Source: a virus (Duplodnaviria; Heunggongvirae; Uroviricota; Caudoviricetes). Taken from it: a stretch of 23,044 nt of DNA. Below are positions 3,771 to 15,508 of the stretch, one piece after another (within the stretch, counting starts at the first letter, position 1; every line of letters begins with the position of its first letter). A program made the translations under genes and the position numbers. The stretch lies in IMG/VR virus record IMGVR_UViG_2778261246_000008; one strand, 5' to 3'. Below the pieces are notes generated by a model. The model was not told the origin of the DNA. It did not search any database and saw nothing but the letters and a program-made list of their open reading frames with translations.

Positions 3771-6593
3771 ATGACGGCAGAGTACATCAGGGACTGGCAA
3801 CAACCGCGCCACGCAGTGGGGCGTGAAGGAACGGGGATCCCCGCTCCTGAATCCGCGCTTTCCTCCTGGCTGGATGCCTACCGGGTAGAGAACGAGCGCC
3901 GCCAGGAAATGGCTGATGCGGCCTTCTCCGCCACGCCACTGGGCAACCTGATTAATAAAAGCCTGGACGCACAGGAAAAACAGGACAAAACCATCACACT
4001 GGCAGGAGACGCCAGAAAACAGGCACGCGGCGCGGTGGATGAAGCCATGGCCTCGCTGCGCCTGCTGCCGTCCTATCTGCGCGATCCGCTTATTCGCCAC
4101 CTCTCCTTCCTGCGCAAAAAACAGGAAGCCGATCGCCGGAAAGGCAAAAAGAGCTGGCAGGCGGAACGCTATGCACGCGGAACCCTGCGCAAAATATTCG
4201 AACGTCTGGATCGCACTGACGGACACTGGCTGACACCGGGTTATCGCTCCCTTGCCGGACGCGAACGCCTGGACGATTTGCTTTACCTGCCGCAGCTCAA
4301 CAAACACCAGATACAGACGCTGGCCACCATGACGGCGGCGATGTTCAGCAGCACCTTCGAAAAACTCTGCGATGGCTTTGGCGCGACCGATGGCGAACTG
4401 ACCATGGATGTAACGCTGAAGGCGTATCAGATGCTGGCCCGCATGGCGTTACACCTGCACATCATGCCTCCACATTATGACGCACTGACAACAGATAAAG
4501 ACCGGAGGAACGAACCGGACACGGAGCTGCTGCCGGGCGCAATCCTTCGCCTGACCTGTGCGGAATGGTGGAAACGCAAACTGTGGCTGTTACGTTGCGA
4601 GTGGAGAGAAGAACAACTCCGCGCCGCCTGTCTGGTTTCCAGAAAAACATCACCCTATCTGAGCCAGGACGCGTTAAGCGAGTTTCGCGCACAGCGCGAG
4701 AAAACACGCGATTTCCTGAAAAGTTTCATGCTGGAAAACGAAGACGGGTTCACGATTGATCTCGAGACAGTGTATTACGCGGGAGTAAGTAACCCGGTTC
4801 ACCGTAAGGCAGAAATGATGGCCACCATGAAGGGGCTGGAACTTCTGGCCGAAGCCCGTGGCGACAAAGCGGTGTTTCTGACTGTCACCTGCCCGTCAAA
4901 ATACCACGCCACAACAGAGAACGGTCATCCGAATCCCAAATGGAACGGGGCCACCATGCGCGACTCCAGCGATTACCTAGTTAACACGTTTTTTGCAGCG
5001 GTCCGCAAGAAACTGAACCGCGACGGCCTGCGCTGGTATGGCATCCGCACGGTGGAGCCTCACCATGACGGCACCGTGCACTGGCATATGATGGTCTTTG
5101 CTCATCCGGAAGAAATCGACACCATTGTGTCCCACACCCGCGATATTGCCATTCAGGAAGATCGTCACGAGCTGGGTGATGATATTACCCCACGCTTTAA
5201 GGCGGAGTACGTCGACGGCTCAAAAGGCACGCCAACCAGCTACATCGCCACCTACATCGGAAAGAACCTGGACAGCCGCGCCGTGGATGGCATCGACCCG
5301 AAAACGGGCAAGCCACGCGTTGACCACGAAACAGGTAAATCAATGGCCGAGAGCGTGGAGCGCGCCATCGGCTGGGCGCGCCTTCACCGGGTCCGCCAGT
5401 TCCAGTTCTTTGGCATCCCCTCCCGTCAGGTGTGGCGTGAACTCCGCCGCCTTGCCAGCCAGATGGCACGCAACCCGGAAGGCCCGCAACGGCTGAAGGA
5501 TGACGCAATGGATGCGGTACTCGCTGCCGCTGATGCCGGATGTTTTGCCACCTACATTGAAAAACAGGGTGGCGTACTTGTTCCGCGCAAGGACTACCTG
5601 ATTCGCACAGCCTACGACCTCGCAGATGAGCTGAACGATTACGGCGAACAGAGTGTACAGATTTACGGGATCTGGTCGCCATTCATCGGGGAATCCTCCC
5701 GTGTGTGCACGCATCCGGATAACTGGAAGCTGGTAAGACGTAAACCGGAAGCGGAAGACAGCGCCCGCGAAAATGGTTTTGACCTTCAGGGCGGCCCTGC
5801 CGCCCCTTGGACTCGTGGCAATAACTGTCCCCGTGTACAGGAAACGGACAACAACGGGACAGAACAGCCGGAAGAACGGCCAGCACCGTGGCCGCAGCTC
5901 CCTGATGGCGTTGAAGTGAACGAATGGATGCGCTCACTGAAACGACACGAACGCCGGGCGCTGATGCGTTCGCTTCGTGACAAACAGGCAAAAAACAGCA
6001 GCGATGAAATGCAGAGCTGGACACAGAGCCGCAAACAGCCACGGCCTTTGCCTGATAACCACGAATTACTCGCTAAAGAATGGCGGGAGTCTGCTGAATC
6101 TCTCGGCCTGCATATCGGTGAACAACAGATGCAGCACCTGTTACGGGGCGGCAGTCTGTACGTTGACGGCAGCATCATTGCACCGCAGGGATTTGAAATT
6201 GTACGCAAACCGGATACCCGCCCGGACAGCCGAATCACGCAGCTCTGGCAGCGCCTGAGCCGTAATCATGGCGTAAGCAGCACGGAGATCCGCCATAACC
6301 CGGTCGCCAGCTATCTGGCACAGCTGGGGGCATCAGACCCTGAAGCCGCCGCACGCCTGGCATCCACACTTCAGCAGGACCAGAACACCATGAAAACACC
6401 CGTTACCGTGCTTTCTGACATGCTGCGCGCCATCCGCGACGCAGAGCACGCACAGAGAATCAGTGAAACCACTGAACGCGCCAGCCGCAAAGCAGACCTG
6501 CTGCGGGGTGGCATGACCAGTGGAAACAAAAAACAGACAGAAACGGGATTCACAAATCCCATAAATGAGCAAAAAACGTGCCGCGATATATGA
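3771..6593 (+). CDS. A: Rolling-circle replication initiator / endonuclease, P2 gpA family
   Basis: 940-aa ORF with the HUH metal-binding motif (TVHWHMMVF) and the paired catalytic tyrosines (TSYIATYIGKN) typical of P2 A-type initiators. Position after the early small genes matches P2. Confidence 0.9.
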   Translation: MTAEYIRDWQQPRHAVGREGTGIPAPESALSSWLDAYRVENERRQEMADAAFSATPLGNLINKSLDAQEKQDKTITLAGDARKQARGAVDEAMASLRLLPSYLRDPLIRHLSFLRKKQEADRRKGKKSWQAERYARGTLRKIFERLDRTDGHWLTPGYRSLAGRERLDDLLYLPQLNKHQIQTLATMTAAMFSSTFEKLCDGFGATDGELTMDVTLKAYQMLARMALHLHIMPPHYDALTTDKDRRNEPDTELLPGAILRLTCAEWWKRKLWLLRCEWREEQLRAACLVSRKTSPYLSQDALSEFRAQREKTRDFLKSFMLENEDGFTIDLETVYYAGVSNPVHRKAEMMATMKGLELLAEARGDKAVFLTVTCPSKYHATTENGHPNPKWNGATMRDSSDYLVNTFFAAVRKKLNRDGLRWYGIRTVEPHHDGTVHWHMMVFAHPEEIDTIVSHTRDIAIQEDRHELGDDITPRFKAEYVDGSKGTPTSYIATYIGKNLDSRAVDGIDPKTGKPRVDHETGKSMAESVERAIGWARLHRVRQFQFFGIPSRQVWRELRRLASQMARNPEGPQRLKDDAMDAVLAAADAGCFATYIEKQGGVLVPRKDYLIRTAYDLADELNDYGEQSVQIYGIWSPFIGESSRVCTHPDNWKLVRRKPEAEDSARENGFDLQGGPAAPWTRGNNCPRVQETDNNGTEQPEERPAPWPQLPDGVEVNEWMRSLKRHERRALMRSLRDKQAKNSSDEMQSWTQSRKQPRPLPDNHELLAKEWRESAESLGLHIGEQQMQHLLRGGSLYVDGSIIAPQGFEIVRKPDTRPDSRITQLWQRLSRNHGVSSTEIRHNPVASYLAQLGASDPEAAARLASTLQQDQNTMKTPVTVLSDMLRAIRDAEHAQRISETTERASRKADLLRGGMTSGNKKQTETGFTNPINEQKTCRDI

Positions 6594-6669: not shown

Positions 6670-7629
6670 ATGAAAATTTGTATCGACGACGGCTCCACCA
6701 ACATCAAGCTGGCATGGACTGAGAACGGCGAACGCCGCAACGCCATCAGCCCGAACAGCTTCAAGTCGGAATGGTCTGCGCCGTTCGGTGGCTCGCAGCC
6801 CGCGAACTACATGCTTGATGGCGTGCGCTATGGTTTTGATCCGGTCAGCGATCGCTTTGTCCAGACGACCGACACGCAATACCAGTACAGCGATGTGAAT
6901 GTCATTGCCATTCATCACGCGCTGGTCAAATCAGGCATCACGCCACAGGAGGTGGATGTGGTTGTCACCCTGCCATTGAGCGAGTATTTCGACACAAACG
7001 CACAGCCGGACATGGCCAACATCAGCCGCAAAAAAGCGAACGTTATGCGCCCGGTGGAGTACCAGAACGGCGAAACATTCACTATCCGTAACGTACGGGT
7101 TATGCCTGAATCCATTCCGGCTGGCTTTAAGGCACTGGCTGACATGAGTCCGTTTGAATCCCTGCTGATTGTGGATTTGGGCGGAACCACTCTGGATGTG
7201 GCAAAGGTTCAGGGGCAACTGGCAGGTATCAGCCAGGTGTTTTGCGATCCACACGTAGGCGTTTCTCTGATGGCCGATGCCGTACTGTCGGTGATGGCCA
7301 CTAACGGTATGCGCACCAGTCACCACATCGCCAATACCATTATCGAACATCGCCATAATGAAGCCTGGCTGCGCCAGCACATCCACAATGACGCGCATTA
7401 CGCCAGCCTGATGGCGATTATTCGTGAAAAGGAAGAAACACTGAAACAACGCGTGATCCGCGCGCTGGCGGGTTTTTCGGGTTACGGGCGGGTGATGGTT
7501 GTCGGTGGCGGGGCGGAGATTGTGGCACCCGCTATCCGCGAAGCCTGCGGAGTTAATGCGACTTTCATCGCGGACGGGGTGCCACAGTTTGCTCTGGTTA
7601 ATGGGCTGTACGCAATGGACAAGGAGTAA
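6670..7629 (+). CDS. parM: Actin-like ATPase of the ParM/StbA family
   Basis: The N-terminus MKICIDDGSTNIKL, plus SPNSFK, YSDVNVIAIHHAL, VMPESIPAG, LLIVDLGGTTLD and VVGGGAE, line up with the phosphate-1, connect and adenosine motifs of plasmid R1 ParM as recalled. AAGGA Shine-Dalgarno upstream. Confidence 0.85.
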   Translation: MKICIDDGSTNIKLAWTENGERRNAISPNSFKSEWSAPFGGSQPANYMLDGVRYGFDPVSDRFVQTTDTQYQYSDVNVIAIHHALVKSGITPQEVDVVVTLPLSEYFDTNAQPDMANISRKKANVMRPVEYQNGETFTIRNVRVMPESIPAGFKALADMSPFESLLIVDLGGTTLDVAKVQGQLAGISQVFCDPHVGVSLMADAVLSVMATNGMRTSHHIANTIIEHRHNEAWLRQHIHNDAHYASLMAIIREKEETLKQRVIRALAGFSGYGRVMVVGGGAEIVAPAIREACGVNATFIADGVPQFALVNGLYAMDKE

Positions 7630-7633
7630 ACCA

Positions 7634-7945
7634 ATGACGACACCAACCAGACGGATAAGTTTCTATCTGAAGCCCGCCGCCGTCAAGAACGAAGGTGAAG
7701 CATGCGCCTGGCTGGACAGCCTTACACCAGAAGCGCGCAAAAGCGGCCAACGCGTGGCTTTTCTGGCCGGGCTGGCACTTCTGAAAATGAATCCGGCAGA
7801 GGCTTACCGACTGGCTGCATGGGCTGATGATGAAGCGTTATCAGTGACACAAACCAGGACAGAACGCCCCGCGTCACAGCCAGTATCAACCGCACAGATA
7901 ACCAGTCAGATGGCTGGAAATATCCGGGCGTTATTTCCCGAATAA
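7634..7945 (+). CDS. parR: ParR/StbB-like adaptor, probable ribbon-helix-helix DNA-binding protein
   Basis: Immediately downstream of parM with an AAGGAG Shine-Dalgarno. RISFYLKPAAV...AFLAGLALL...IRALFPE parallels the R1 ParR pattern from memory. Size (103 aa) and position fit the family. Confidence 0.6.
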   Translation: MTTPTRRISFYLKPAAVKNEGEACAWLDSLTPEARKSGQRVAFLAGLALLKMNPAEAYRLAAWADDEALSVTQTRTERPASQPVSTAQITSQMAGNIRALFPE

Positions 7946-8008: not shown

Positions 8009-8344
8009 ATGCAACGCATTGACAGAGAAAAAGCGCAGCGACTGATTGAGCGGATGGAAGCGCTGGCGAAAGAAGAAAATGTCAACATCCAAAAAATAGC
8101 TGAATGTGGCCAGATAGTTCTTCGTCGTGAAAAAGACCTCAAACAACTGATGTCTGGCGAAACCAGCAAAACATGGACTTCAGGTGAGGAGACGATTTAT
8201 TGCAGCTTCTGCAATAAATCCCAGTACGAAGTCACAAAGGTGATTGCCGGACCGTCTGTTTACATCTGCAATGAGTGCGTTGATTTGTGCAATGAAGTTA
8301 TCAGGAGAGAAGTGACAGACCATGAAGAAAAAACGCATGAATGA
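8009..8344 (+). CDS. Stand-alone ClpX zinc-binding-domain-like protein (C4 zinc ribbon) with an unrelated N-terminal helical extension
   Basis: The C-terminal segment [40 protein letters not shown] is near-colinear with the N-terminal zinc-binding domain of bacterial ClpX (CSFC...CxxC), but there is no AAA+ module. AGGGGGA Shine-Dalgarno. Confidence 0.8.
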
Positions 8345-8510: not shown

Positions 8511-8918
8511 TTAAATATAATCTTCTTCGTAGTCGCTGATTAATTCATTGCCATAATCAGACAGCAATTTCAAAGCAAAGGTAACTTCCTCAAGGGTAGC
8601 TATCCCCATTGCTGAAAACACCGTTAATTTAACCAGCAGCAGGGAGTTTGAAAGTTCGGAAGAGTTCATCATTAAAAATATTGATGCAGCCTGAAAAGCT
8701 GTGCGTTTATTCCCATCATGAAAGGCATGAGCCTTGGCTATACCAATCAAATACATAGCAGCCAGAGCATGAATATCATCAACCCCTTCATAGTAGTGTA
8801 GTGTCCTGACGCGATTTAAAGCACCTTCAAGTAGCCCGTCATTGGCATTTCCGCTCTGGGGTAAAGTTTCAGCATGGATACGTTCTACTTGTTCTTTTGA
8901 CAAAAACACTATGTCCAT
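8511..8918 (-). CDS. doc: Doc-family toxin (Fic/Doc fold)
   Basis: Contains the Fic/Doc motif HAFHDGNKRTA. Its start overlaps the stop of the upstream antitoxin gene as ATGA on the minus strand. AT-rich relative to the phage backbone. Confidence 0.85.
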   Translation of the reverse strand: MDIVFLSKEQVERIHAETLPQSGNANDGLLEGALNRVRTLHYYEGVDDIHALAAMYLIGIAKAHAFHDGNKRTAFQAASIFLMMNSSELSNSLLLVKLTVFSAMGIATLEEVTFALKLLSDYGNELISDYEEDYI

Positions 8919-9274
8919 CAGTTATCCTCAAGCTTTTTAATGATATCCGCATGTTTTTCTCTTGTACGCTTCATTGCATCTTCAAAAGACAATCCTTTTT
9001 TTCTCTGTGCGACAAGAGCTGGATGACGTTTTTCCAGATCTCTCACTGCATTTATTAAGAGTGGTTGCTTCATTTTGTTTATTTGATCCCGCAGTTTTTT
9101 GGTTTTGCCAAGGACAGCCCGTATTTCAGGACTAAGATCAGAACCAGCAAGAACAACATCCTTCCCTCCCTGCGCCGTGATAACGACACTGCCACCGGAA
9201 GAAAGGTAATCCAGAATTTCACTCAGGTTCTCACGAAATTCATCATCAGTTACAGTTTTCATATTCATTTCCAT
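8918..9274 (-). CDS. phd: Phd/YefM-family antitoxin
   Basis: Small acidic protein immediately upstream of doc and translationally coupled to it. The N-terminus (KTVTDDEFRENLSEILDYL) fits the Phd/YefM pattern. The true start may be one of the internal ATGs (MEMNMK). Confidence 0.7.
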   Translation of the reverse strand: MEMNMKTVTDDEFRENLSEILDYLSSGGSVVITAQGGKDVVLAGSDLSPEIRAVLGKTKKLRDQINKMKQPLLINAVRDLEKRHPALVAQRKKGLSFEDAMKRTREKHADIIKKLEDN

Positions 9275-9348
9275 TATGCACGCCCATAACGTAAGTATAA
9301 CGGCTTGTTGGGCAGTAATAACACCGCCATATTTTCATTTTATACACC

Positions 9349-9374
9349 GCACAATAGTGCACAAATTTGCACAA
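9349..9374. repeat. Three GCACAA hexamers phased at 10 bp (9349, 9359, 9369), with a fourth at 9441
   Basis: Read directly in the sequence: ccGCACAAtagtGCACAAatttGCACAAttttt. One-helical-turn phasing suggests a protein-binding array, either a phd-doc operator or a terminase/cos accessory site. Confidence 0.4.
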
Positions 9375-9417
9375 TTTTTTTGAACAACTTTTTACCCTTC
9401 CGGCCCGCGTGGCGACT

Positions 9418-9520
9418 GGATCCGTCAAGGATCCGTGCGTGCACAAAAAAACGCGTTTTTTCTGCGCGCAGGTGACGGGGGAACAGCCCGCGTTTCAGGG
9501 GGTAAATAGCATCCCCTGAA
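9418..9520. other. Probable cos (cohesive end) region of the prophage
   Basis: Non-coding stretch between the cargo island and the portal gene Q, where cos lies in P2-like phages. GGTGACGGGGGAACAGCCC (9471-9489) matches the P2 19-nt cohesive end as I recall it (GGCGAGGCGGGGAAAGCAC) at about 13/19 positions. Flanked by a GGATCCGT direct repeat (9418-9425, 9429-9436), the perfect palindrome AAAAAACGCGTTTTTT (9446-9461) and the inverted repeat CAGGGG-N11-CCCCTG (9496-9518). Confidence 0.4.
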
Positions 9521-9748
9521 CGATGTCGCAGCGACACAACAGAATGGCTGTATTTCTCACGCTGAGCATGAAAAAGACGTGAGGACTTTTGATTTGATGG
9601 GGTAGCAGATAAGGCCGTCAAAATCGCACTGAGGCGGCGAGAACATGCAGTCAGCGCAGTGGGATTGCGTAAGAGCCTGACCGTCGATGATGGCGATAAG
9701 CTGGAAGACGTCGTGAAATTATCTGATTGATACAGGAGTTGGAGAGTC

Positions 9749-9771
9749 GGGGCATAAATTTTTTATGCCCC
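9749..9771. other. Perfect 10-bp-stem palindrome GGGGCATAAA-ttt-TTTATGCCCC just downstream of the Q stop
   Basis: Read directly. There is no flanking U-tract on either strand, so it is not a canonical intrinsic terminator; it could be a bidirectional terminator variant or a protein-binding site. Confidence 0.3.
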
Positions 9772-9798
9772 GGCGAAGCAGCAGACAAGCGAAGCGCG

Positions 9799-10845
9799 TC
9801 AGGATGTGGGCTGGGTGTCCAGCAGTGCGTAAGGGTTAAATCGGATCACCTCTTCGCCAAGCCAGTCATTGATATGCTTCATGGCCTCCATGACGGGCAT
9901 CAGCTCGTTAATTGCGTAAACCCGCGCGGCCTTCTCCACATCACCAAACGCACTTTTTTCGCCCGGCATCGCCCCCATCAGTTGCGGCGGAACGCGGTGC
10001 GCAGCCAGCACATCATCACGGGATGCCGCCTTAACATTCATGAACTCATCCTTTGCGGTGATCTGCTGGAACGGCAAAATTTGCACCCCCTCTTTGCCAC
10101 CGTTGGGGGCATGAATGAGCACGTTTTTAAACGCACCACCACCACGTGCACCCTGTAGCGTTTCTTTCAGGGAGTCCATGCTTTCGCGGTTTACCTGCGC
10201 TGCACCGATGTAGATGATGCACCCGGCGTGGGATCCGTTGTCGTAATACAGTTTTCTGAACATGTCCGCCGAATGAGACAGGCTGGCCGAGAGTAATGCG
10301 CCAAGATATTCCGGCATGCCGTAGATTTCCTGGTTAATGTCAGGATTCATCAGGTGGCACACTTTACCAGGGCGAAACTGAAACGCATCCTTGCCATCCT
10401 GCACATACCACCATGATTCAAGATCGCTTCCGCGTCGCATGTATTTCGCCAGGGCGTGCCGTAATTTAAGCGGTTCGCCGAGCATATTGCTTCGAAGCTC
10501 AAGGAATGCGTTACCGAACACAAACCAGTCCAGCGCCAGCGCCGAGAAATCCTGCCGGGAAAGCAGCGGGTGCGGAATATAGCAGCCGAGCAATACATTG
10601 CGCTTAAAGTAAAGCGCAGACTGATGCCAGGACGTTTGCCGGGCAGCTCTTGCCAGACCGTACCAGTCTACCGGGGTTTCATACCACCGCCCGTTATCAG
10701 CACAGTACATATTGTCCAGCAAATCATGCCCGGTCAGGCGATAAGGACCATCAAAAGTGAATGCACTGAGCGACGATTCTTTCCTGAGTGCATCAGCGAG
10801 ATCAATGCGTGAACTCATGCGCACTTTTTTATTTTTTCTGCTCAT
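9799..10845 (-). CDS. Q: Portal protein (P2 gpQ family)
   Basis: 348-aa ORF adjacent to the putative cos and directly downstream of the large terminase gene, with a 1-nt ATGA overlap. Order and size match P2 Q. Confidence 0.88.
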   Translation of the reverse strand: MSRKNKKVRMSSRIDLADALRKESSLSAFTFDGPYRLTGHDLLDNMYCADNGRWYETPVDWYGLARAARQTSWHQSALYFKRNVLLGCYIPHPLLSRQDFSALALDWFVFGNAFLELRSNMLGEPLKLRHALAKYMRRGSDLESWWYVQDGKDAFQFRPGKVCHLMNPDINQEIYGMPEYLGALLSASLSHSADMFRKLYYDNGSHAGCIIYIGAAQVNRESMDSLKETLQGARGGGAFKNVLIHAPNGGKEGVQILPFQQITAKDEFMNVKAASRDDVLAAHRVPPQLMGAMPGEKSAFGDVEKAARVYAINELMPVMEAMKHINDWLGEEVIRFNPYALLDTQPTS

Positions 10846-12596
10846 CAGAACTCCATAACCGTGAAACGCTCGTTTTCTCCTTCGCCGCCAATTGGTTCGT
10901 TAATGACAGCAAGCATGGTTGCCCACGCAAGGTCGCCGTGGCTGATCCCCCTCGCGCGGTCCGTTTCGTAAGTGATAAAGCCGCCCGGTGTTTTCACCTT
11001 ACGCACGGCGTTAAAGGCCGCGACCAGCTCGCGTTCGGCGCGATCGTATTCCCACCGCCCGGCACGCATTATTTGCAGCATTTTCAGTACCAGCGACCGT
11101 TTTGATGACAGCGTGAAGGTGTACGGAATAGCGGCAGGGAAAAACCGTTTCACTATCTGATAAACAGCCTCCCCGTTCCCGCCCGTCACATCAATGCCGA
11201 TGTGTTCCACGTTGTAGCGATACGTGAAATCTTCAATGACTCTGGCCTGTTCTTCAAACTCCAGCCCCTGAACGCGTCGCGTCTCCACCGTTCGAAAACG
11301 GCCACCAGGAACAGCCGGAGGAACCACCACGGACACAGCGCCGCTGTCGCCGTTGCCACTGCTGCCGTTTGCGTCATACCCAATCCATACCGGACGATTC
11401 CCCATCGGGCGGGGAGCAAAAGGTTTCCAGTCTTTCCAGTCGTCGTATCCGTCAACACCGCAGCCAATCAGGATATTCAGGTTAAATGCCGATTCCCCTT
11501 CGCGGACAAACTCACACATATAGAGATTGAGGAACTCGTCTTCGGTGTATTCATCACGAATTTCGTCGATATCGGTGTGTTTCCAGCCGTGATTAACCAC
11601 ATCTTCCAGCGTGACAATTTGCCGCCACATCCGGTCAGGGCAGATAAGCCCGTTATGCAGCGTTTTCCAGTCCACAGAAAAACGCTGGCGTTTATGCGTG
11701 GCCTTTTTCTCGTTCCAGCGGTCGCCGTTCCAGTAGGCGTATGCTTCGTGCGTTTCGGTGGATGGCGTGGAGAAGTAGGTGCGCCGCAGTCCGCTGAGGG
11801 TTGCCATAGCGCCAGCCACCTTGCGCAGTTCAGCAAAGCGACTGACCCAGAAAAATTCATCAAAATAAAAATTGCCCGTATAGGACTGCGCCGACGCAGC
11901 AGAAGTGCCGAGAAAATGCAGCTCTGCGCCGTTGGAGAGGATGATTTTATCGCCCCCTTTCAGCTCCACATCAACTTCAGCCGCAGCCTTCTGAATAATG
12001 CTTTTAAACTGGAACGCCTGACGACGCGACGCAGACAAAAAAATCTGGTTACGCTGGTAAGGTTGCGCCACATCGTCACGCAGCGCCATCAGCAGTGCTT
12101 CCTGTGCAAAATACCAGGTCGCCCCAATCTGTCGGGATTTCAGGATCATCCTGTTACGTATCCCGGCTTCCCTGCAAAGGGTCAGGGAGTCAAACCAGCC
12201 CCGCTGATGCCACTCCAGCCTGCTGATGATTTTTTCCCGCAGTGCGGCAATCTGTTCCGGCGTGAAATGATTTTTGAGTTTTTTCGCCCGGCCTTTCTTC
12301 CCTGTGGCCGTCGCATCCGGCTGGCCATCATGCAGTTTTTTAAGCTGCCGGGTCAGCAGGTCTATTTCCTTGAAGTCACCACCTGTTTTATTCTGTTTTT
12401 CAGTGAGCTGGATGAGGCGCGCATCGATGGACTGCGTGACACGCTGCACGGGTGGCGTTTCATCCCACTGGTCGCGTTTTTTCCACGCATAAATCGTGTT
12501 CGGGTTTATTCCCATCAGACGTGATATTTCTGCGGGCGGATAACCCTGCCAGTAAAGTTGTCGCGCACGCTGGCGCACAAAAGCGTCCTGAATCAT
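10845..12596 (-). CDS. P: Terminase large (ATPase) subunit (P2 gpP family)
   Basis: 583-aa ORF divergent from the O-N-M capsid operon, with a GGGGGAG Shine-Dalgarno. Position and size match P2 P. Confidence 0.9.
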   Translation of the reverse strand: MIQDAFVRQRARQLYWQGYPPAEISRLMGINPNTIYAWKKRDQWDETPPVQRVTQSIDARLIQLTEKQNKTGGDFKEIDLLTRQLKKLHDGQPDATATGKKGRAKKLKNHFTPEQIAALREKIISRLEWHQRGWFDSLTLCREAGIRNRMILKSRQIGATWYFAQEALLMALRDDVAQPYQRNQIFLSASRRQAFQFKSIIQKAAAEVDVELKGGDKIILSNGAELHFLGTSAASAQSYTGNFYFDEFFWVSRFAELRKVAGAMATLSGLRRTYFSTPSTETHEAYAYWNGDRWNEKKATHKRQRFSVDWKTLHNGLICPDRMWRQIVTLEDVVNHGWKHTDIDEIRDEYTEDEFLNLYMCEFVREGESAFNLNILIGCGVDGYDDWKDWKPFAPRPMGNRPVWIGYDANGSSGNGDSGAVSVVVPPAVPGGRFRTVETRRVQGLEFEEQARVIEDFTYRYNVEHIGIDVTGGNGEAVYQIVKRFFPAAIPYTFTLSSKRSLVLKMLQIMRAGRWEYDRAERELVAAFNAVRKVKTPGGFITYETDRARGISHGDLAWATMLAVINEPIGGEGENERFTVMEF

Positions 12597-14707: not shown

Positions 14708-15508
14708 ATGATTACTCCTGCACAGCAACACTGGCAGAACGTGATGGCACAGCGCGCAGGCCGGGCGAATGAAGGCGTGGACCACGCCGCGCGTACCGCG
14801 CATGAAGAGGTGCTGTATCGTCTGCGTCTGGTACAGGCCCGGCTTAAGGGCGTACAGGCCAGAAGCGCGAAAGCCGCCATCAAAAAAGAGTTATTGCCGG
14901 ACTTTTCCGGCTGGATTGAGGGAACGCTGGAGGCTGACGGCGGGCAGCAGGATGAAGTGATTGCCACGCTGATGGTCTGGGCGATTGACTGCGGCGATCT
15001 TCCGCTGGCGCTGCGTATTGGCGCATATGTGGTCCGTCACAACCTCATCATGCCGGATAACTTTGGACGTACTGCTGCCACGGTACTGACCGAAGAAATC
15101 TGTAATCCGGTACTGACGCAGGCCGGGACGGATGCCGACGCGGATTTGTCCGCCTTTATCGAACCACTGGACACCCTCCGGGAGATTGTCACCGACCAGG
15201 ACATGCCGGACGAAGTGCGCGCCAAATTATGCAAAGCGTGCGCCTTTGCCCGCCGTGGCCTGAGTGATGCGGACAGCATGGCCCTGTCACTGAAGCTGCT
15301 GCGCGAAGCAATGCACCTGAACCCGAACGCAGGTGTGAAACGCGAGATTGCAACCCTTTCCCGCGCCCTGAAAAAAGCCGATTCCGCAGCCGCACCAGAA
15401 GACGCCAGCGCACAGCAGACGCAGGACGAAAGCAGCAAAAGTAAAAAGACAACGCGGAAGCCTGCAACACGAAAAACCACCGCGACGCAGAAGGCGAAGC
15501 GCGGTTAA
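14708..15508 (+). CDS. M: Terminase small / endonuclease subunit (P2 gpM family)
   Basis: 266-aa ORF following N, with a GGAGAG Shine-Dalgarno and a basic Lys/Thr-rich C-terminal tail. Order matches P2. Confidence 0.82.
   Translation: MITPAQQHWQNVMAQRAGRANEGVDHAARTAHEEVLYRLRLVQARLKGVQARSAKAAIKKELLPDFSGWIEGTLEADGGQQDEVIATLMVWAIDCGDLPLALRIGAYVVRHNLIMPDNFGRTAATVLTEEICNPVLTQAGTDADADLSAFIEPLDTLREIVTDQDMPDEVRAKLCKACAFARRGLSDADSMALSLKLLREAMHLNPNAGVKREIATLSRALKKADSAAAPEDASAQQTQDESSKSKKTTRKPATRKTTATQKAKRG

Follow-up and report, generated by a model that had tools for sequence, protein, structure and literature searches.

A probable cohesive-end packaging site built on GCACAA repeats in a P88-like, P2-family prophage of Escherichia coli

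Introduction

What is the function of the repeat-rich DNA that lies between a toxin-antitoxin cassette and the portal gene of a P2-like prophage? The question is raised by positions 9349-9520 of IMG/VR record IMGVR_UViG_2778261246_000008, a viral sequence of 23,044 nucleotides (hereafter called the window) which is a P2-family, P88-like prophage. The original prediction had taken this region for a probable cos site and had left room for the same repeats to act as operator of the adjacent phd gene. On the basis of comparative sequence analysis, we put the probability that 9349-9520 is the cos (cohesive-end packaging) site of a P88-like P2-family E. coli prophage at roughly 85%. This assignment is supported by the position of the region, the edge of homology at its first repeat, its selective conservation, a geometry shared with phages P2, 186 and P4, the generality of this layout, sites that bridge it to the P2 cohesive end, the linked terminase genes and the portal gene found near every such site in viral contigs with enough flank. 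The site is an uncharacterised specificity variant of the well-known P2-family cos, set apart by its own repeat word, by divergence of the nicking block and by an offset of 2 bp.

A query of 191 bases (9340-9530) was 100% identical to E. coli strain C7. The nearest named phages were P88 and other members of Xuanwuvirus and Gemsvirus, with 91-94% identity over the intergenic region. No description of a P88 or Xuanwuvirus cos was found in the searchable literature, and no annotation of one was present in the records examined.

Elements of the candidate cos region

The region consists of the following elements (slash in the GC-rich block, predicted nick):

9349..9374, plus strand: repeats (iterons) 1-3, GCACAA three times, starting at 9349, 9359 and 9369 with exact 10-bp spacing
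9375..9383, plus strand: conserved T7 tract plus GA, immediately past repeat 3
9384..9439, plus strand: spacer between repeats 3 and 4, of fixed length and partly conserved sequence (CCCTTCCG.CCC; GGATC at 9429-9433)
9440..9451, plus strand: repeat 4, TGCACAAAAAAA, with GCACAA at 9441; counterpart of the TGCATTAAAACC that opens the 55-bp cos core of P2, P4 and 186
9436..9470, no strand: left inverted repeat TGCGTGCACAAAAAA / TTTTTTCTGCGCGCA, arms 9436-9450 and 9456-9470, 87% complementary
9464..9489, plus strand: GC-rich block GCGCGCA/GGTGACGGGGGAACAGCCC, the predicted nicking site
9494..9520, no strand: right inverted repeat TTCAGGGG-N11-CCCCTGAA, just past the predicted right nick; closes the region

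Several of these elements had been named in the original prediction, and all of those were found at the positions given. The helically phased GCACAA iterons are present at exact 10-bp intervals, with a further copy at 9441. The triple pattern was matched once in the window but never in 100 shuffles, even when two mismatches were permitted. As a single word GCACAA is not enriched in the window (17 copies found, 22 expected), and it is thus the arrangement that constitutes the signal. Repeats 1-3 are proposed to be a terminase recognition array, by analogy with cosB of phage lambda, and the T7 tract that follows them probably either bends the DNA intrinsically or belongs to the recognition site. 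Repeat 4 starts 72 bp past the start of repeat 3 (9369 to 9441).

The spacer between them holds the direct repeat GGATCCGT, likewise present as claimed (9418-9425 and 9429-9436, 11 bp apart). It also holds two GATC (Dam) sites, at 9419-9423 and 9429-9433, the latter of which is kept as GGATC in most enterobacterial relatives. The A6-CGCG-T6 palindrome AAAAAACGCGTTTTTT (halves AAAAAACG/CGTTTTTT) is indeed perfect; it occupies 9446-9461, inside the left inverted repeat. The latter forms a hairpin in the minimum-free-energy fold and stops at the predicted left nick, where P2 shows CCGCCCCgtgaaGCGGGCGG. The GC-rich block starts 24 nt past the start of repeat 4. Two inverted repeats (9436-9470 and 9494-9520) flank the predicted end, as they do on both sides in P2 and 186, and folding of 9430-9525 as single-stranded DNA gave z = -4.3 against shuffles. 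The sequence of the right inverted repeat is not conserved in distant relatives. An array of binding sites for integration host factor (IHF), which had been offered as one explanation of the phasing, was not borne out: the consensus WATCAANNNNTTR does not occur within 9349-9520 with one mismatch or fewer.

Comparison with mapped cos sites

To compare the region with sites of known function, records of P2, 186 and P4 with annotated cohesive ends were used, and the right and left ends of each were joined. All three carry TGCAT three times (spacing 12-13, then 10), with a fourth TGCAT exactly 72 bp past the third. An inverted repeat follows the fourth copy, and the annotated nick lies 29 nt after its start. 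The window has the same geometry with another word (GCACAA; 10, 10, 72). The same GCACAA-type layout was found in Enterobacter phage T5282H and in the divergent E. coli prophages L009 and L010. This geometry of three repeats plus one (3+1) was derived here from the sequences and not taken from a paper. By our own count, the stretch from the fourth TGCAT copy through the 19-nt end plus seven further bases corresponds to the 55-bp conserved cos core of P2, P4 and 186 (Ziermann and Calendar 1990, according to the passages citing it in PMC5694545 and PMC9594776). P4 is reported to share with P2 only its cos region and yet has all four repeats, which argues that the four repeats belong to the packaging signal.

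Further points of likeness are the location between the cargo hotspot and the portal gene, the inverted repeat between repeat 4 and the nick, the linked terminase genes of gpM and gpP type, and a GC-rich nicking block that resembles the GG(C/T)GA..GGGG of the three phages. The differences lie in the repeat word and its spacing (GCACAA at 10 and 10, whereas P2, 186 and P4 have TGCAT at 12-13 and 10), in the start of the GGYGA motif (31 nt past repeat 4 in the window, 29 nt in the others) and in the low ungapped identity of the window to the P2 55-bp core (24/55). The gpM of the window is 33% identical to that of P2. The ends of P2, 186 and P4 have been mapped (19-nt 5' cohesive ends), whereas cleavage in the window is predicted from sequence.

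The cos of phage lambda is organised as cosQ-cosN-cosB, with sites R1-R3 for gpNu1 and the IHF site I1. The candidate site resembles it in having a nicking site, three nearby repeats that may be read by the small terminase subunit, and possible DNA bending between them. It differs from lambda cos in that the sequences are unrelated, the nick separates the repeats from the terminase genes, and a fourth repeat stands beside the nick; the IHF consensus is also lacking, and the overhang is expected to be about 19 nt and not 12 nt. A further parallel is the P2-family cos of the Ralstonia phages phiRSA1 and phiRSY1, GGTGAGGCGGGGTCCAAC (PMC5694545). Its overhang opens with GGTGA, as does the GGTGACGGGGG of the window, although these phages belong to another host clade.

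Conservation and the edge of homology

Ungapped alignments anchored on repeat 1 were made with 15 and then with 95 distinct GCACA-type sites. Over the 95 sites, conservation was seen in the four repeats (repeats 1-3 at 95% or more), the T7 tract, CCCTT, GGATC at 9429-9433, TGCACAAAAA and, above all, GCGCGCAGGTGACGGGGGAACAGCC. No other element is conserved across genera as well as the GC-rich block. Variation was seen in the first GGATCCGT copy and in the CGCG-T6 half of the palindrome: the former is not conserved beyond close E. coli relatives, and many of these relatives carry AAAAAAACGCGCTTTTTC (A7CGCGCT5) and no palindrome. The GGATCCGT pair and the perfect palindrome are found only among close relatives and are probably dispensable.

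The region is widespread. The 191-base stretch is present in about 1,150 of 5,426 complete E. coli genomes (about 21%). A search of E. coli genomes with the 65-bp core gave 1,314 places, compared with 1,325 for the whole 191 bp, and all weak core matches that were inspected lay in P2-like prophages beside the portal gene. Phage T5282H conserves 9349-9492 (75%) but not the rest of the intergenic region. A portal gene was found 336-1078 bp away from each of the 84 GCACA-type sites in viral contigs with enough flank (84/84). The genes on either side of the region in the window are:

9799..10845, minus strand: portal gene (gpQ homologue; Pfam PF04860; 45% identity to P2 gpQ)
8511..9274, minus strand: phd/doc toxin-antitoxin cargo cassette, phd 8918-9274 and doc 8511-8918; context, outside cos

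The 3' end of the portal gene points toward the candidate cos region, as it does in P2. In one contig, L028 (NZ_JBQPOM010000071.1), labelled as the Gram-positive 'Vagococcus sp. WN89Y', the portal is 100% identical to that of the window and the same cos region is present; this contig very likely derives from contamination by E. coli or from an assembly with the wrong label.

In P2-like phages a cargo hotspot directly adjoins cos (Rousset et al.; PMC9122126). The annotated cos of P2 and 186 lies between the 3' end of the portal gene and the cargo, and the candidate region likewise is the first conserved phage-backbone sequence past variable cargo. In 16 phage records and about 1,130 of the 5,426 E. 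coli genomes, matches start within a few bases of 9349, whatever cargo lies to the left. This cargo is unrelated among the relatives and comprises hypothetical genes in P88, a TumE toxin-antitoxin pair, a DUF4760 gene, or an S8 peptidase with an AAA ATPase. As the edge of homology stays at the first repeat despite the differing cargo, the repeats belong to the phage backbone. The phd-doc pair itself is a cargo cassette in the hotspot adjacent to cos. Pfam places doc in Fic/DOC above the curated cutoff and phd (118 amino acids) just under that of PhdYeFM (29.2 versus 29.8 bits).

The backbone location bears directly on the proposal that the repeats are the operator or promoter of phd-doc, bound by Phd or Phd-Doc for autoregulation, with cos elsewhere or coincident by chance. 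It is true that, on the strand from which phd is read, the array is located 75-100 bp upstream of the start of that gene (9274). Cargo promoters can moreover overlap such an array: at the right end of P2 (L005, 825-879) the old-tin transcript starts 26-28 nt from the first TGCAT, so that in that phage the binding of terminase might impede cargo expression, and vice versa. Identical repeats, however, stand beside cargo unrelated to phd-doc in more than 1,100 E. coli genomes, and the same holds for prophages of Citrobacter, Enterobacter, Serratia, Pantoea and Morganella. The 74 bp that separate the repeats from phd (9275-9348) are cassette-specific and offer room for phd's own promoter. A promoter scan of 9150-9850 found no sigma-70-like site. 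With the phd-doc operator of phage P1 the repeats have in common only the location upstream of a phd homologue; they are direct and not palindromic, lie at least 75 bp from the start codon and are conserved independently of phd-doc. As the repeats belong to the backbone and not to the cassette, the operator reading falls away and is highly improbable. The 74-bp gap contains a direct repeat of its own, ATAACG-N5-ATAACG (about 9298-9314), which could be the real phd operator.

Predicted nicks and cohesive end

A 19-mer loosely resembling the P2 cohesive end had been predicted within the region. It is present at 9471-9489 as GGTGACGGGGGAACAGCCC and agrees with the P2 end GGCGAGGCGGGGAAAGCAC at 13/19 positions; taken by itself, this match is at chance level. 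It appears to mean something only through its fixed position past repeat 4 and through two bridging sites, those of L033 (Morganella) and L157. Both have GCACA repeats followed, exactly 29 nt past repeat 4, by the P2-like GGCGAGGCGGGGGAGCAA(T/G) and then CGCGCGC, which is almost the P2 end, and in L157 the P2-like overhang is preceded by GCGCGCA, as in the window. Homology of the 19-mer to the P2 cohesive end thus has indirect support in these sequence intermediates. An earlier pairing of the TGCGCGC at 9463 in the window with the TGCGCGC past the P2 overhang was dropped given the repeat-anchored alignment and the L033 and L157 sites.

The predicted nicks follow from two observations: GGTGA is offset to 31 nt past repeat 4, and both the CGGGGGA.CA centre and the downstream AGGGGG keep the L033 register. 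The top strand would be nicked at 9470/9471 (best guess) or 9468/9469 and the bottom strand about 19 nt further on, which would place the cuts within 9468-9471 and 9487-9490. The cohesive end would be a 5' end of about 19 nt within 9469-9489, with 9471-9489 as the best guess and 9469-9487 as the alternative.

A competing location for the cohesive end lies nearer the portal, for example GGCGGCGAGAACATGCAG at about 9633-9650, in which case 9349-9520 would be an accessory or unrelated conserved element. This sequence is 166 bp from the portal stop, similar to the 186 bp in P2, and the distance also resembles that in phage 186. Its flanks, read directly off the sequence, are loosely like those of P2 (TCAAAATCGC... 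and TCAGCGCAG), and L009 and L010 carry GGCGAGGTCGGAGATCGGG in the homologous stretch. Its ungapped identity to the cohesive ends of P2, 186, L033 and L157 is nevertheless below 12/19, and no repeat array stands at a fixed distance from it. The surroundings (9493-9799) are conserved only in close relatives and not in T5282H or in other genera in which both the repeats and the GC block are retained. Distance from the portal is no constraint, since many loci of the TGCAT class have their cos 1-4 kb from that gene. The candidate at 9633-9650 was rejected on these grounds and is very unlikely to be the cos site.

Repeat words across P2-like prophages and the linked terminases

To see how general the layout is, 80 P2-like prophage loci from many genera were gathered through portal alignment and scanned de novo for any 5-mer of which three copies are spaced 9-14 bp apart and a fourth follows 60-89 bp on. 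By our own estimate, about 0.03 matches per locus are expected by chance. About 14 loci, with portals 49-100% identical to that of the window, had GCACA (10, 10, 72) beside the portal, and about 20 had TGCAT/GCATG (13, 10, 72). The 72-bp gap is identical in P2, 186, P4, T5282H, L010 and at least 30 other loci. Betaproteobacterial loci had GTTACC or TTAGG with a spacing of 12, 10 and 67/76. Seven of these (L036, L048, L055, L057, L076, L079 and L082) carry extra inverted copies of the word on the other strand, in a more symmetric layout. In a Symbiopectobacterium P2-like prophage (L056), about 12 tandem copies of the 10-bp ACGGTGAATT lie in the cargo region past cos, about 2.1 kb beyond the portal stop. 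Judged from these sequences, the survey suggests that the cos of P2-like phages could be located by its 3+1 array, the 72-bp spacing and a class-specific word.

Two terminase genes of the window are of interest as possible readers of the repeats:

14708..15508, plus strand: small terminase subunit, gpM-type (Pfam PF05944, E = 9e-37; 33% identity to P2 gpM)
10845..12596, minus strand: large terminase, gpP-type (Pfam Terminase_5, Terminase_6N and Terminase_6C), with an N-terminal helix-turn-helix

The gpM-type protein is a candidate reader of the repeats. The gpP-type protein would supply the nuclease for the nicking of cos and is likewise a candidate reader. Most loci of the GCACA class have a gpM 50-97% identical to that of the window (two outliers, 29% and 41%), while gpM of the TGCAT class reaches at most 38%. 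The repeat word thus tracks the terminase clade in these sequences, which fits a terminase that reads the repeats without telling apart the reader subunit.

Within a cos site, the reader of the repeats may be a host protein or the helix-turn-helix at the N-terminus of gpP in place of gpM; this part of gpP may also act jointly with gpM. This variant of the mechanism leaves the identity of the region unchanged and is possible, although we consider it the less probable arrangement. The N-terminal Terminase_5/HTH_23 domain (65 residues) of gpP speaks for it, as does the recognition helix, which reads N-T-[IL]-Y in most GCACA loci, including the divergent L031 and L033, versus [PA]-T-V-[QH] in the TGCAT class; a locus with a weak GCACAA-like site, L035, has a helix of the TGCAT/GTTAC type. 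Against it, the GTTAC and TGCAT classes have nearly the same helix despite their different words, and gpM also splits by class. In other phages the small subunit is the usual reader of cos or pac, and all of the covariation is confounded by phylogeny.

Genetic neighbourhood

To the left of the cargo cassette, the window encodes the following:

3771-6593, plus strand: gpA-type replication protein
6670-7945: ParM (StbA_N/ParM_N) and Plasmid_stab_B (ParR-like) genes
8009-8344: ClpX-type C4 zinc-finger protein of 111 amino acids

The P88 homologue of the 8009-8344 protein is annotated as 'carboxylate-amine ligase / ClpX'. The ParM/ParR-like pair, a partition system of plasmid type in a phage that integrates, is also present in P88 and several relatives.

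Centromeres of ParMRC systems are arrays of direct repeats of roughly 10-11 bp, and with ParM and a Plasmid_stab_B protein encoded at 6670-7945, 1.4-2.7 kb to the left, the 10-bp repeats could be taken for a parC-like partition centromere. This reading fails because relatives in which no ParM/ParR genes were found in the stretches examined (L009, L010 and T5282H) keep the repeats. Equivalent TGCAT arrays are present in P2, 186 and P4, none of which is known to have ParM/ParR. In addition, parC normally lies directly upstream of parM, whereas the array is 1.4 kb downstream of the ParR-like gene and beyond two other cassettes. A role as partition centromere is therefore extremely improbable.

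Short open reading frames (ORFs) across the candidate cos region were treated as spurious; for the 93-aa ORF at 9340-9621 on the minus strand, Pfam gave no match. At 9602-9733, P88-type records annotate a 42-aa 'hypothetical protein'. In the window this frame stops early (ATG GGG TAG), and with its internal stop it is probably not a gene. A perfect hairpin, GGGGCATAAA-TTT-TTTATGCCCC, lies at 9749-9771, shortly past the portal stop, where P2 has its terminator tQ. A terminator scan did not call this hairpin, the stem of which is not followed by a T-run. In 9150-9850 the scan made a single call, on repeats 2-3 and the T-tract, which is probably a repeat artefact. No known RNA family scored above threshold; one sub-threshold match to gyrA-RNA on the hairpin at 9740-9793 was judged to be due to chance.

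Discussion

Several observations weigh against the assignment of 9349-9520 as cos, most of them concerning the cohesive end. Eight 19-mers of the window match the P2 cohesive end at 13/19 positions or better (shuffle mean, 5.4), and one, at 3919, reaches 14/19. The GGYGA offset of 31 nt, as compared with 29 nt in P2, 186 and P4, allows for more than one register and for an overhang of 17-19 nt. None of the phage records and viral contigs of the GCACA class that were examined ends at the predicted nick: the contig ends are spread over 76, 157, 199, 295 and more bases past repeat 1 and do not cluster. A single record, LR595891, has its start within the region, and this start is between repeats 3 and 4 instead of at the GC block. 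When the T5282H site was used as query in a second phage search, no additional informative records came up. As regards the repeats, the match between word and terminase clade is confounded by shared ancestry, and the TGCAT and GTTAC classes have similar gpP recognition helices despite their different words. LR595891 (P88_4B11; L001 position 1 and L007 end) is a linear record without terminal repeat, cut at the window equivalent of about 9394/9395, and its start is probably an arbitrary assembly break.

From the repeats, their conservation, the geometry shared across the family and the linked terminase genes, we infer how the region might work. After excision and replication, terminase (gpM plus gpP) would bind the four GCACAA repeats, all of which are on the same strand. 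With a spacing of 10 bp, and with the fourth copy 72 bp (about seven helical turns) past the third, they would all be displayed on approximately one face of the helix. Bending or wrapping of the DNA would be permitted by the T/A tracts and the spacer of fixed length, and the gpP nuclease would thereby be placed on GCGCGCA/GGTGACGGGGGAACAGCCC. Staggered nicks would then give a GC-rich 5' cohesive end of about 19 nt, and the repeats would end up, as they do in P2, at the end of the chromosome that is farther from the portal and terminase genes.

A broader idea may be put forward tentatively, as one that we consider rather less likely to be right than wrong. P2-family phages may fall into discrete packaging-specificity classes that share one invariant scaffold of 3+1 repeats and about 72 bp and differ in the repeat word (TGCAT, GCACAA, GTTACC, TTAGG and others), and the GCACAA class may not be parasitised by P4-like satellites, the cos of which is of the TGCAT type. 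No P4-like satellite with a GCACAA-type cos was seen in the core search of E. coli genomes or among the 84 viral-contig sites, a limited sample that provides a lead only. If the idea were true, a changed specificity of cos and terminase would be a route of phage escape from satellite piracy, and the repeat word would predict which helper packages which satellite or cosmid.

The finding points to a packaging signal, so far uncharacterised, that is present as the exact site in about 21% of complete E. coli genomes, within P88-like prophages. The 170-bp region is a candidate for the construction of cosmids and transducing particles in the P88-like group. In the biology of these prophages, the site would be the fixed anchor beside which defence and toxin-antitoxin cargo is swapped. 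Which terminase subunit reads a P2-type cos becomes testable through swaps of the repeat word. The most useful by-product may be the family-wide rule of 3+1 repeats and 72 bp.

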